64,000 nt of DNA from Escherichia phage EF1-1. The stretch lies in sequence record PQ571289, one strand, 5' to 3'. The notes under the pieces are model-generated. The model searched no databases, was not told where the DNA came from, and was given only the letters and a program-made list of their open reading frames with translations. The position numbers and the translations under genes were made by a program. Shown one piece after another: positions 6,170 to 17,670 of this stretch (the stretch's first letter is position 1; each line of letters opens with the position of its first letter).

Positions 6170-6547
6170 ATGCAAGAGAGTAAAAATATTCCGTTGAGTA
6201 GTCCAATGTTGTTAGCTTTCTATGAAAGTTGGCTTGCTGATCATCATACCAAAGAGCGCACAAGGCATGGGTTATGTGTATGCTTGGATAGCTTTATCTG
6301 GGATGAGATGTGGGACCGTAGCTTCAGTGAGGAACATCACCGCCAGCTTTGTGCCATAAGTGATGCAACATTAAAAGAAATGAAGAAACAGTTTCGTTGT
6401 GCAGGATTGTCTGTCAGTGTTCCCTTTAATGTGAACTACGAAGACTATGTGAAAGAGCATATCCATAATAGATCGCATGAAAACAAGCTTCGTGTAGAGT
6501 GGGTGAAAGATCGCATCGAAGATGTAAATAATGCTTGCATTGAATAA
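6170..6547 (+). CDS. paralog family A member 1 (WL..GLC..WVKD motifs)
   Basis: AAGAGGAG RBS at internal ATG; shares motifs with 9845, 13189, 16028, 17332. Confidence 0.6.
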   Translation: MQESKNIPLSSPMLLAFYESWLADHHTKERTRHGLCVCLDSFIWDEMWDRSFSEEHHRQLCAISDATLKEMKKQFRCAGLSVSVPFNVNYEDYVKEHIHNRSHENKLRVEWVKDRIEDVNNACIE

Positions 6548-6618
6548 AAATGTCTGTATAGTGGTTTGCATGAGAGGTGCGATATCGCGCATAACAAACA
6601 GCTAATGAGGAGATTGGA

Positions 6619-6867
6619 ATGCATAACATGAAACGCATGAAAATTCGTATAGAAGATCCGTGTGGGTATGAGGGATTAGAAGGTGCAACATTCCCACTCA
6701 TCCTTGATGCTAAACTGGGTGACAAGGGGCTTGCCTATGTGCGATTCTCAACTATGATGCAAGTGGAAGGCTGGTGGTGGGATGAGGAAGATACGAAAGA
6801 AGGTCATGATTATAGTTTCTTCTCTCATGAGTATACGATTGTAGAGGAGACGAGTGATGATCTGTAA
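6619..6867 (+). CDS. paralog family B member 1 (KIRI..CGY..GW.W.E motifs)
   Basis: GAGGAG RBS; similar to 6854 and 10555. Confidence 0.6.
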   Translation: MHNMKRMKIRIEDPCGYEGLEGATFPLILDAKLGDKGLAYVRFSTMMQVEGWWWDEEDTKEGHDYSFFSHEYTIVEETSDDL

Positions 6868-7075
6868 AATTCGTATTGAGCATAATTGTGGTTACTTAGG
6901 ATTGCTTCATGTAGATTTTCCTGTTACACTGGATGCACATATTGGTTATGGCAGAAATGCCTACGTGCAGTTCACAACGATGAGCCATGTGCAAGGTTGG
7001 AAATGGGAAGAAGGGGATACTGTTGAAGGAGGTGAGTATGTTTTCCTTCGTGATGAATATGAAATTGTCTATTAA
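6854..7075 (+). CDS. paralog family B member 2
   Basis: tandem to member 1. Confidence 0.6.
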   Translation: MMICKIRIEHNCGYLGLLHVDFPVTLDAHIGYGRNAYVQFTTMSHVQGWKWEEGDTVEGGEYVFLRDEYEIVY

Positions 7076-7078
7076 AGG

Positions 7079-7327
7079 TTGTGTGCAATGATCACACCAC
7101 AACAGAATGAAGCAGCAATGGATCTTCTTGATAGTTTGTATTTCGATAATTGGTACTCTGAATGTGAATGGATGAATATGCAAACTCTGAAAGAGAAGAC
7201 AAAAGCGTTGATTACAGTAGATCAATTTCTTGCAGAGACGGAAAGAATGAATTATGATATGGCATCTCGCGCACGACGCGTTTCCATTTTCAATAAAATG
7301 TTAGCATTATGGGGAGGTAGAAAATGA
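7079..7327 (+). CDS. hypothetical protein (82 aa)
   Basis: ORF in operon. Confidence 0.5.
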   Translation: MCAMITPQQNEAAMDLLDSLYFDNWYSECEWMNMQTLKEKTKALITVDQFLAETERMNYDMASRARRVSIFNKMLALWGGRK

Positions 7328-7785
7328 GACAATTCACTATACTGGCAGCTTATGTGCAATGTGTTCACGATTATGTTAGTGCTCATACAGGTTTGCTGGA
7401 AGTTACCAGTAAAATTGAAGGTAATATGGGTACTGTCTGTGTGCAACATACTTTATCCAATGTGCCGTTTAAAGTGTTCACTGTTGTAGCTGCCGATTAC
7501 AATCGTGTAGATGTGCGTTTCTTGGATCATAATTTTCGTAACGCACTAGATAATATCGAAGATTATCTTCCCGTGAAACCTTTGTCATTTCCACCGAGTC
7601 GTGCAAATAATGTAGTGACAAACCTTAATGAAAGGAATGTGGCTATGCACAAAAAAGTCCGTCAACTGAAAACGCTGATGGAAATGCAAGAAGAGATTGA
7701 AAAAGAACTGAAAGAAGATTTTGGTATGCTTCCAAAAGACGCTTTGAAATGGTATGATGAACTAGGAGGAGAAAGTTATGAATAA
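7324..7785 (+). CDS. hypothetical protein (153 aa)
   Basis: GGGGAGG RBS. Confidence 0.6.
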   Translation: MRQFTILAAYVQCVHDYVSAHTGLLEVTSKIEGNMGTVCVQHTLSNVPFKVFTVVAADYNRVDVRFLDHNFRNALDNIEDYLPVKPLSFPPSRANNVVTNLNERNVAMHKKVRQLKTLMEMQEEIEKELKEDFGMLPKDALKWYDELGGESYE

Positions 7786-7972
7786 AGGAACTACTGTATA
7801 TTTAGTAACAAAGAATACCCCAGGCTGGAGCCAATGCAACACTGTCCCTTACAAGATCTGTGCAACATTAGAACTAGCACAACGTGCAGAAGCAGAAGTG
7901 GATGCTATGCGATACAGCTATGGTGAAATCATTCCTTTCACTCTTGAACAAGAAGGAGCATACAATGTTTAA
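7778..7972 (+). CDS. hypothetical protein (64 aa)
   Basis: AGGAGGAG RBS. Confidence 0.5.
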   Translation: MNKGTTVYLVTKNTPGWSQCNTVPYKICATLELAQRAEAEVDAMRYSYGEIIPFTLEQEGAYNV

Positions 7973-8420
7973 AGAAGGTCATGTCTACCGTTTCCAGGAT
8001 GAGGATTATATGCGACTATATTCTACCTTTGATAACAGTATGGCTGCTATCATTGGAGAGAATTTTTTCGAGGTGTTGAGCACTGATGCAAATGGTAATA
8101 TCTTGTCAATTGTTGTGATAGGGAGAGACGGTATTATCACTGCTAGTGATGGGGATCGTTACATAATCAATTCTGCTCATATAGATTATTTTGTTGACGG
8201 TGGTATTCGTGGTGGTCGTGGAAAACCCCAAGAAGAACCTGTTGATACAACAAAAGAAGAGTGGTATGTTGTAATGACTGATGACACCTGTATTTCTGGA
8301 TTTGAAAGTTATGAAGAAGCTTTGAAAGAAGCAGCAGAGCATAAAATGGCTAATCCTACAGAAGAGGTTGAAGTTTATAAACGTTTGGTTGTTGCTACCA
8401 TCGGCGTATCTTTTGTTTAA
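7965..8420 (+). CDS. hypothetical protein (151 aa)
   Basis: AAGGAG RBS at internal ATG of ORF 7884..8420. Confidence 0.55.
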   Translation: MFKEGHVYRFQDEDYMRLYSTFDNSMAAIIGENFFEVLSTDANGNILSIVVIGRDGIITASDGDRYIINSAHIDYFVDGGIRGGRGKPQEEPVDTTKEEWYVVMTDDTCISGFESYEEALKEAAEHKMANPTEEVEVYKRLVVATIGVSFV

Positions 8421-8432
8421 AGGGGGAATGTT

Positions 8433-16050: not shown

Positions 16051-16393
16051 GAGGATTCTTTTAGATTTCTATAATAATTGGTTAGAACACCTCCGTCTTT
16101 TTCCAAGAGAAAGTGGTTACGCTGATGTTGGCTTATGCCGAGGTCTACGTATGTATATAAGTGATGAATTTCGGGCCGAGCATTCTTTAGCATATTCTGT
16201 TTATGGTATGCAATTAGCCAGTTTTGAAAACGCTGGTTTAGATACAACTTTCCCATTTAACACAGCAAAATCTTTTGAGCAAGAGTGTAAGGAAAAACGT
16301 TGCATGTTTAATGAAAAACGTGTACAGTGGGTTAAGGATCAAGTTAAACAATTGGAACAAGAGTTGGATTTCTTTTATGATGAGGCAGAATAA
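16028..16393 (+). CDS. paralog family A member 4
   Basis: GAAGGAG RBS at internal ATG; motifs FYNNWLEH..GLCRGL..VQWVKDQ. Confidence 0.55.
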   Translation: MTIDLKCKRILLDFYNNWLEHLRLFPRESGYADVGLCRGLRMYISDEFRAEHSLAYSVYGMQLASFENAGLDTTFPFNTAKSFEQECKEKRCMFNEKRVQWVKDQVKQLEQELDFFYDEAE

Positions 16394-16665
16394 TGGATAG
16401 ACAAACCTTAAAAACAATGGCAGATGCTACTAATTCCCCGTACTTTGAAAAAGTAAGTAAATTGGTAGCTCAAGCCGCAGAGGAAGGATATTATAACATA
16501 AACATCCACAACCCAAGTCTTATACTAGAAATGCCAAGTGATAAGAAGATGCAAGAAAGTATCTGTGAAGGTATTGTTAGTTACTGGCGCGAGCGTGGGT
16601 GTGGTGCAAACATGGCTTTAGACAGTGCAAACATTGTAAGATATATAAATATTTCTTGGGGGTGA
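16393..16665 (+). CDS. hypothetical protein (90 aa)
   Basis: TAATGG overlap. Confidence 0.55.
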   Translation: MDRQTLKTMADATNSPYFEKVSKLVAQAAEEGYYNINIHNPSLILEMPSDKKMQESICEGIVSYWRERGCGANMALDSANIVRYINISWG

Positions 16666-16669
16666 TTTT

Positions 16670-16954
16670 ATGATTCAATGCACTCATATCCAAATTACTT
16701 GGAGAGATGAACTTTACCATATGGGACAATTTACTGTAGGGGAAACATACCCTATCATTAAACATAATCCTAACATCGCAAACTTTGACAGGATGGTTCT
16801 TGTTGAAGACGATCTAGGTCAAACTTATTCTTTAGATCTAAAATATCCGTTTTCTTACGGCTACGATTGGATCGTTACTTTTGAAGACGTGGAGGAAAAT
16901 AAAACAATGAACGAAAAAATTCTTGGTATTATCGTTGTGAACTGCCGCCAGTAG
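16670..16954 (+). CDS. hypothetical protein (94 aa)
   Basis: GGGGGTG RBS. Confidence 0.55.
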   Translation: MIQCTHIQITWRDELYHMGQFTVGETYPIIKHNPNIANFDRMVLVEDDLGQTYSLDLKYPFSYGYDWIVTFEDVEENKTMNEKILGIIVVNCRQ

Positions 16955-16980
16955 GTGAAAAGGTTATCTTTGTTCCTGAT

Positions 16981-17280
16981 TTGGAAAGATATTCTTGGGA
17001 CAGTTCTTATTCTGTTCCTAAAGAAGGCACCGAAGTTGAAGTTATTGCACATCGCACAACTTCGCATGGTAACGATGTAGCAGTTGTTTTCTGGGATGAT
17101 GAAGGCGCTGCTTGTGCAGGTGGCTTTGTTGCAGGTAATTTTGAACCCCTGCCAGATCCTTTGAAGGAGGCAATCTTAGGCGTAGCTTCTTTTGGACTCT
17201 CTTACACATCTGCACAAGAGATCGTAGAAGGTATTTTAAACGGTACCGTTCCAAACGAAATTTTCAAACAGATTAAATAA
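16981..17280 (+). CDS. hypothetical protein (99 aa) with no credible start; frame open from 16903
   Basis: only TTG at 16981 with poor RBS; frame overlaps 3' end of 16670 gene across an A6 run. Confidence 0.35.
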   Translation: MERYSWDSSYSVPKEGTEVEVIAHRTTSHGNDVAVVFWDDEGAACAGGFVAGNFEPLPDPLKEAILGVASFGLSYTSAQEIVEGILNGTVPNEIFKQIK

Positions 17281-17285
17281 CAATT

Positions 17286-17312
17286 GCACCCCGTTCTTCG
17301 GGGTGTTATTGT
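17286..17312 (+). terminator. rho-independent terminator
   Basis: CACCCCG-TTCT-CGGGGTG hairpin plus TTATTGTAT. Confidence 0.6.
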
Positions 17313-17331
17313 ATACGTAAAGGAGGAGATA

Positions 17332-17670
17332 ATGTATTACACTGAAGACTACATACTGTATAACTTTTTTAAAGGCTGGTTGAAATGGGCTGAACAAGCT
17401 CCTGTCGGAGATTGTGTTTTTCCTTGGGATTCTCGTCAAGGTTTGTGTCGTTGTTTGGAAGATTGGCTTATAACCACAAACTACAACTCAGAAACTAAGA
17501 AATCTACATCACAGAGACTAAAAATGTTATTTGAAGAAGATGGTTTAGATCCGATTTATCCTTTCGGTGAGGAAAGTTTCCACAATGGTCTTTTCCTTGG
17601 CACTCAACATTATGATAAAGATCGTGTAGATTGGGTAAAAGAAAAGGTAGCACAGTATGAATGGGGTTAA
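17332..17670 (+). CDS. paralog family A member 5
   Basis: AAAGGAGGAG RBS; motifs FFKGWLKWAEQAP..GLCRCL..VDWVKEK. Confidence 0.6.
   Translation: MYYTEDYILYNFFKGWLKWAEQAPVGDCVFPWDSRQGLCRCLEDWLITTNYNSETKKSTSQRLKMLFEEDGLDPIYPFGEESFHNGLFLGTQHYDKDRVDWVKEKVAQYEWG

Follow-up and report, generated by a model that had tools for sequence, protein, structure and literature searches.

Which proteins are encoded by the five similar small genes scattered between positions 6,170 and 17,670 of a 64,000-nucleotide stretch of Escherichia phage EF1-1 DNA (sequence record PQ571289; the whole stretch is hereafter called the window), and what might they do during infection? A sequence-only reading of the window had grouped the plus-strand genes beginning at 6170, 9845, 13189, 16028 and 17332 (copies 1 to 5) into one paralogue family with an ordered set of motifs, and had likened it to host-takeover or anti-defence effectors. 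Here we find that these genes are real homologues. Judged by profile matches, they belong to a large phage-restricted family of single-domain proteins, for which we coined the name 'N4 gp3-like' in this analysis and which comprises PHROG 2510 and the satellite PHROGs phrog_6418, phrog_27059 and phrog_2176.

Homology of the five genes

The homology of the five genes was supported by alignment, by an independent profile and by a profile hidden Markov model (HMM). A MAFFT alignment of the five copies contained 15 invariant columns, with identities of 26–35% to the first copy, and pairwise BLASTP comparisons gave 26–37% identity, all in one register. Consistently, each of the five matched the independent profile phrog_2510, with E values from 1.8e-20 to 8e-30, and their paralogy is therefore real. 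An HMM built exclusively from external members scored the five copies at 73–116 bits, while none of 2,000 composition-preserving shuffles of each copy exceeded 14.3 bits. The shuffles together with the independent PHROG matches ruled out compositional chance as the source of the shared motifs, an objection that the sequence-only reading had itself named. A six-frame HMM scan of both strands found exactly these five genes and no sixth member in the 64-kb window.

The motif set first proposed was largely correct and needed some amendment. The N-terminal FY is FF in copy 5, the GLCRGL of copy 4 breaks the pattern GLCx(C/N)L, and the C-terminal motif, in which either R or K had been allowed at the first position, never has K there; it reads R(V/I)xWVK(D/E)x, with the R invariant in the five copies. 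Also present is a conserved block, (E)MxxQFxx(A)GLxxxxPF, that had been missed. The 'aromatic-rich stretch' corresponds to a segment of variable length between helices 2 and 3.

A large phage family without assigned function

PHROG 2510 is already catalogued, with its function unassigned, and the five genes are additional members of it. The search of other phages by profile that had been suggested as a check indeed revealed a large family: HMMER searching of 1.84 billion representative proteins retrieved 1,611 clusters at E ≤ 1e-3 and 646 at E ≤ 1e-10. Among the members is gp3 of phage N4 (NC_008720 1214–1528, E 5e-21), to which the annotation of phage JWAlpha pointed.

Querying nucleotide records with copy 3 (tblastn) gave matches in 250 phage records. 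The number of matching places per genome was four to seven in Phapecoctavirus, two to four in phi92-like and other large coliphages (~140–150 kb), and one in N4-like and T7-like podoviruses. Among 72,556 plasmids, tblastn matched a single one. Bacterial and archaeal genomes, 185,579 species representatives in all, were covered by two pattern scans, whose sensitivity is limited to the patterns used; one scan returned no match and the other a single match, on a 717-bp contig. Within the reach of these patterns, the family looks confined to phages. The phages that carry it infect alpha-, beta- and gamma-proteobacteria and are apparently mostly virulent.

Family members occur as single domains, as two or three domains fused head to tail (BcepSaruman gp339 is an example) and, in one case, as a fusion behind DUF551. 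The metagenomic contig ERR10900106_450 carries a two-domain fusion (75–674) and a single-domain member (1588–1926), that is, three domain copies on 3.5 kb. Apparent N-terminal membrane anchors in some database members (P0036 and P0051) probably stem from starts called too far upstream (compare the ATG at 6083 in the window) and were not used as evidence.

No function is recognisable in these proteins, as the sequence-only reading had stated. None of the five copies had a match above the curated threshold in Pfam, NCBIfam or PADLOC, and sequence searches of the PDB, with single proteins and in two profile searches, gave no match either. The same holds for the wider family, as none of 145 diverse members matched Pfam over this domain; the exception, lying outside it, is the N-terminal DUF551 of the one fusion.

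Conserved residues and predicted fold

The first half of the family consensus reads L..FY..Y..WL..GAP....F.R..GLC.NL and is followed by a variable stretch of ~18 residues; the second half reads EM..QF..AGL....PFN.....Y..E......CHLNP.RI.WV.D. Across 94 members with a single domain, F, C, P-F and R do not vary, and conservation reaches at least 90% for G, L, Q, N, W and V. In HMM numbering, the invariant positions of the family are F10, G33-L34-C35, P73-F74, R96 and W99, and all five copies from the window carry them. The only polar residues among the invariant ones are a Cys and an Arg, which lie in the first turns of helices 2 and 5, respectively; in copy 3 they are C33 and R92. The residue two after the Cys is Asn or Cys, alternating across members (GLCxNL or GLCxCL). 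Glu58 and Gln62 (HMM numbering), both 90% conserved, are kept in copies 1–3 and lost in copies 4 and 5 and in N4 gp3. A family-wide His is likewise kept in copies 1–3 and lost in copy 4, which retains the Cys, PF, Arg and WV positions despite the loss of Glu, Gln and His. The conservation of Cys and Arg, together with Glu, Gln, His and Asn, suggests a functional site rather than a mere scaffold.

Structure prediction, also suggested with the sequence-only reading, was applied to copy 3 and to one fusion protein, P0035. The AlphaFold2 (AF2) model of copy 3, based on a 20-sequence alignment, was confident (predicted local distance difference test (pLDDT) 93.2, predicted template modelling score (pTM) 0.85) and contained five helices; its confidence served as a third independent control against chance similarity of the five copies. 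Compared with models in BFVD, it gave template modelling (TM) scores of 0.7–0.85 with family members from Burkholderia, Rhizobium, Achromobacter, Klebsiella, Delftia and Escherichia phages, and all of its BFVD matches were uncharacterised phage proteins. The two-domain fusion P0035 was modelled as a compact structure (pLDDT 91.5, pTM 0.81). The modelled members are predicted to fold into compact five-helix domains with no match among solved structures. A relationship to MarR-type winged-helix proteins was considered and rejected: the score was in the noise range, the proteins are acidic, there is no wing after a recognition helix, and the top matches were unrelated enzyme fragments. The five copies have pI values of 4.6–5.9, and each is a soluble acidic polypeptide of ~105–125 amino acids (aa).

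Evolution of the copies

How did one genome come to carry five members? Repeated duplication and diversification within the block had been proposed, a view that proved right only in part. The best non-orthologous relatives of each copy are found in other phages or metagenomes, not among its neighbours in the same genome; copy 2, for instance, scores 108 bits against P0035 and 63 bits against copy 3. Because the five copies are closer to homologues in other phages than to each other, they represent old subfamilies and not recent local duplicates. Ratios of nonsynonymous to synonymous polymorphism (pN/pS) among orthologues from five near-identical genomes were 0.03 for copy 2, 0.16 for copy 3, 0.09 for copy 4 and 0.10 for copy 5. 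Copies 2–5 are clearly functional and constrained by purifying selection.

Active turnover is visible elsewhere, in slot 1 (the position of copy 1) and in the gain and loss of whole copies. The five near-identical genomes scanned differ in copy number, which ranges from 5 to 6. Phage ZCKP1 has an extra copy, c1b, in tandem at slot 1 (1551–1916), which is absent from the window. Another extra copy, c3x, lies ~0.4 kb upstream of copy 3 in SF1-1 (9544–9870) and Ro121lw (8934–9260) and is also absent from the window; in ESCO5, c3x is present (7798–8124) and copy 3 is absent. The c3x orthologues show a higher pN/pS, 0.41.

At slot 1, the flanks share 95–100% nucleotide identity with SF1-1 and Ro121lw, and the gene body 40–60%. 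The conserved ends of the gene comprise the first ~11 codons, MQESKN(I/V)PLSS, and the last ~15, WVKDRIED(A/V)NNACIE. Nineteen clusters of slot-1-type alleles showed pairwise identities of 33–99% (median 50%), with obviously mosaic halves. In copy 1 of the window, the body of ZCKP1 c1 is joined to the 3' end of c1b within the codons for WVKDRI, and from these alignments the copy looks like a crossover product of the ZCKP1 tandem pair. This composition therefore indicates unequal or homologous recombination between family members. On such sequence comparisons, slot 1 is a hypervariable recombining cassette.

Active turnover is thus concentrated in slot 1 and in whole-copy gain and loss, not in copies 2–5. 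The finding is now better founded than by reading the sequence alone, and its evolutionary part is corrected, from a recent burst of duplication to old constrained subfamilies plus one hypervariable cassette slot.

Genome position and expression timing

Members in unrelated phages share a position near the left genome end. The member from Burkholderia phage JG068, gp5, belongs to a left-end cluster, where it is flanked by annotated host promoters and by a terminator, with the genes for primase and helicase farther downstream. The authors of that genome equated this position with that of class I early genes in T7 and phiKMV (PMC3765740). JWAlpha gp08 and N4 gp3 sit between the gp1/gp2 and RNAPII genes, in a region whose products are described as early and as transcribed from the left end by the injected virion polymerase (PMC4496689). 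In an all-against-all comparison of these left-end regions and the block of the window, the family was the only one in common, barring the N4–JWAlpha orthologues gp1, gp2 and gp14, and the comparison revealed no conserved partner gene beside family members.

Within the window, the two best matches to the sigma-70 consensus (11 of 12 positions) are on the plus strand between genes of the block, at 13506 and 13974. The first, at 13506–13534, is a near-consensus extended −10 sigma-70 promoter sequence (TTGACA-17-CATAAT) and begins at the stop codon of copy 3. No transcriptome was found for the Phapecoctavirus group.

Possible functions

We tentatively favour, at a probability of roughly 0.45, the reading that the products of the five genes are soluble and acidic accessory proteins, made early, whose contacts with components of the host or its defences are centred on the invariant Cys/Arg pair. 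Transcription would start at sigma-70-type promoters within the plus-strand block of ORFans, the five proteins would be made early in infection, and in the cytoplasm they would modulate such components by binding them stoichiometrically. Their common contact would be a conserved face centred on the invariant residues Cys (of GLC, helix 2) and Arg (of RxxWV, helix 5), to which Glu, Gln, His and Asn would contribute in most members, and the length-variable helix 2–3 segment and other variable positions would set paralogue-specific targets. The proteins would probably form dimers or higher oligomers, which we propose because natural two- and three-domain fusions are many and the model of the two-domain fusion is compact. 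A genome with 5–7 copies would hold a repertoire of specificities, in which slots 2–5 are stable and slot 1 is swapped between phages as a cassette through recombination in its conserved ends. A role in host takeover or anti-defence would agree with the left-end position in N4-like and T7-like phages and with the restriction of the family to phages. With its place among the first-expressed genes of several unrelated phage types, the family is a good candidate for host-manipulation or counter-defence proteins.

Several points weigh against this reading. Early expression of the five genes is something that we infer from position and promoter-like sites alone. Selection in slots 2–5 is purifying, not diversifying. 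Behind the dimer proposal stands one pTM value, from the AF2 model of a lone fusion protein whose alignment was shallow. In the literature on phrog_2510, N4 gp3, phAPEC8_0044 and phi92 gp006, only a mention in a BLAST table of the JG068 genome paper was found, and no experimental characterisation of any member. Vequintavirinae and their relatives were unusually sensitive to restriction-modification in the BASEL phenotyping (PMC8594841), and because of this reported sensitivity of the phage group a broad anti-restriction role is unlikely. Finally, several polar residues (Cys, Arg, Glu, Gln and Asn) are strongly conserved in phages from three proteobacterial classes (alpha, beta and gamma), which a fixed ligand or a catalytic site would explain no less readily than a face that binds proteins.

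This last point bears on a different proposal, which we consider rather doubtful: that the domain works as a small thiol-dependent enzyme or binds small molecules, for instance as a sponge for immune signalling nucleotides, with its site at Cys/Arg plus Glu/Gln/His/Asn and with paralogues or fused repeats providing different specificities or interface sites. Cys and Arg are the only invariant polar residues in 94–145 diverse members, with Glu, Gln and Asn at least 90% conserved; the alternation of Asn and Cys at the second position past the Cys suggests that this residue works together with the thiol, and conservation across the three proteobacterial classes would point to a universal ligand. 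The fusions and the compact two-domain model would also fit binding sites at an interface, as in known sponges. However, no fold or sequence likeness to any solved enzyme or known sponge was found, and a ~100-aa all-helical domain is small for an enzyme. Moreover, copies 4 and 5 are under purifying selection though they lack both Glu and Gln, as N4 gp3 does, and several of the conserved polar residues stand at helix starts (NPxR, PFN), where they may be structural caps. It is unlikely, in our estimate, that the domain is a new fold whose Cys/Arg active or ligand site defines a new counter-defence class of enzymes or immune-signal sponges, with the 5–7 members of Phapecoctavirus and their swappable slot 1 as a repertoire that tracks variable host immunity.

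The proteins might instead serve the phage's own programme, as cofactors of transcription or replication or as DNA-binding regulators of the early-to-middle switch, and not be directed at the host. We hold this to be quite unlikely; DNA-binding regulators in particular are disfavoured by the acidity of the proteins and by fold matches at noise level. Highly improbable is the view that the genes are largely dispensable ORFan cassettes that persist selfishly, maintained by recombination among conserved ends and not by benefit. The mosaic slot-1 alleles with conserved termini, the apparent origin of copy 1 in a crossover and the presence/absence polymorphism of copies would suit such cassettes, but the pN/pS values of 0.03–0.16 in four slots and the deep conservation of motifs across 1,611 clusters in many phage families do not, and Pfam searches of the copies and family members found no nuclease or homing domain.

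The five genes in their genomic setting

The window is from a Phapecoctavirus-type Escherichia coli myophage. Its region 6000–18000 shares 95–98% identity with ~125 deposited genomes of this type, including Klebsiella phage ZCKP1, Shigella phage SF1-1 and Escherichia phages DE16, ESCO5 and Ro121lw, and nearly all genes of this stretch are labelled 'hypothetical protein' in the near-identical records. Host names on these records include Campylobacter jejuni (five records), Acinetobacter, Pseudomonas and Klebsiella, and it is probable that not all of these host assignments can be trusted. A plus-strand transcription block of small open reading frames (ORFs) extends from ~6 to ~22 kb and is followed by a long minus-strand block to ~60 kb, as indicated by GC skew, whose sign flips at ~22000 from about +0.2 to about −0.2.

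Directly upstream of copy 1, ~1.5 kb (~4640–6170) contain no credible ORF. This region is A+T-rich and has several short direct and inverted repeats, and the records of several relatives start inside it. Direct terminal repeats are reported for the phage subfamily, and the ORF-free region may contain the genome end or early promoters. Because records start just upstream of the copy 1 orthologue, it is gene 1 in several deposited genomes.

All five genes are on the plus strand, and the ATG of each is preceded by a Shine-Dalgarno sequence 5–9 nucleotides (nt) upstream, GAGGAG in copy 1. Copy 1 (6170–6547; 125 aa, pI 5.9) is the first gene after the ORF-free region and has an insertion of ~20 aa in the interval between helices 2 and 3; it matches phrog_2510 at E 1.8e-20 and the external HMM at 90 bits. 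Copy 2 (9845–10159; 104 aa, pI 4.65) reads GLCSCL and retains the family-wide Glu and Gln positions (phrog_2510 E 4.9e-29, external HMM 102 bits). Nearest of the five to the family consensus is copy 3 (13189–13509; 106 aa, pI 4.6; phrog_2510 E 8e-30, external HMM 116 bits), with GLCTNL, EMHEQF, PFN and CHLNxxRVNWV. Copy 4 (16028–16393; 121 aa, pI 5.1; phrog_2510 E 3.2e-26, external HMM 79 bits) ends in an acidic C-terminal tail and shares 23 nt with the gene upstream of it. The most diverged is copy 5 (17332–17670; 112 aa, pI 4.7; phrog_2510 E 4.1e-27, external HMM 73 bits), with FF for FY, loss of Glu and Gln, and Asn changed to Asp. Just upstream of it, at 17286–17306, is a strong G+C-rich hairpin (GCACCCCG…CGGGGTGT) that can be read on both strands. 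An Rfam scan of 4–22 kb identified no RNA family.

A second small paralogue family has three plus-strand members (6619–6867, 6857–7075 and 10555–10776; 72–82 aa, 37–54% identity), which start with MKIR(I/V)..(C)GY.G and carry the motif (E/Q)GW.W(D/E)E; none of the three has a Pfam match. The label 'protein ea8.5' in SF1-1 is on the orthologue of its third member, 10555–10776, and was set aside as it does not concern an N4 gp3-like protein. Two otherwise different plus-strand ORFs, 8433–8870 and 9197–9409, have in common a C-terminal module of ~48 aa (…DVECDLP.SLKE.L..L..L) with 46% identity, suggesting domain shuffling inside the block. The sole Pfam-recognisable domain among the tested ORFs of the plus-strand block is a serine recombinase at 14942–15619 (plus strand; Resolvase, E 5e-18), situated between copies 3 and 4 in the ORFan block of a virulent myophage; its orthologues in relatives are labelled DNA invertase or resolvase. 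Outside the block, 11 tRNA genes (Met, Arg, Ser, Tyr, Asn, Thr, Gly, Gln, Pro, Ile and Met) cluster at 60677–62586 on the plus strand.

Significance

More than 1,600 sequence clusters of phage 'dark matter' have in common a single domain, which neither Pfam nor the PDB contains. It occurs in the model phage N4, as gp3, and in many coliphages that are candidates for therapy, with up to 5–7 genes per genome. The left-end position in unrelated phage types, the Cys/Arg pair and the hypervariable slot make the domain a tractable target for functional screens, for which N4 gp3 offers a single-copy entry point. If the proteins do inhibit host factors or immunity, part of the ORFan blocks in rV5-, phi92- and phAPEC8-like phages would be explained and a new counter-defence fold gained; if they are not inhibitors, the domain still deserves a Pfam entry and a structure.

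Comparison with known systems

Acb2, Tad1 and Tad2 sponges are small phage-only oligomers whose ligand sites are lined by aromatic and basic residues. In the N4 gp3-like family, aromatic residues, Arg and Cys are conserved and tandem fusions occur naturally, features which may be likened to these sponges by pure analogy, as there is no sequence or structural similarity to them. More generally, the five copies showed no sequence or fold likeness to solved anti-defence proteins, including Ocr, ArdA, Acb2, Tad1/2, Gad and AsiA.

Atd1 of Phapecoctavirus/Justusliebigvirus and Dap1/Dap2 of the Pakpunavirus PaoP5 are comparable as small accessory proteins of the same or structurally matched phage groups. 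Identity with either was rejected: Atd1 is described as a MazG-like pyrophosphatase with anti-TIR activity, and the five copies are without any Pfam domain. Dap1/Dap2 had been considered owing to weak BFVD matches to Pakpunavirus proteins, and the family HMM scored −1.9 bits on PaoP5_003 and 0.3 bits on PaoP5_004.

T7 Ocr, ArdA, T4 Arn, lambda Gam and T4 AsiA offer a likeness in general character: they are small, acidic, soluble, early and phage-restricted proteins that bind stoichiometrically, and by analogy the five copies may bind in the same manner. The closest counterparts are the family's own members in other phages. N4 gp3, phAPEC8_0044, phi92 gp006, JG068 gp5 and JWAlpha gp08 agree with the five copies in family (E 1e-20 to 1e-30), in length and in the order of the motifs (FY, GLC, QF..GL....PF and R..WV), and the predicted fold of copy 3 is the same as that of the BFVD models of PHROG 2510 relatives. 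N4-like and T7-like phages carry one such gene, whereas the genome represented by the window has five separate copies.

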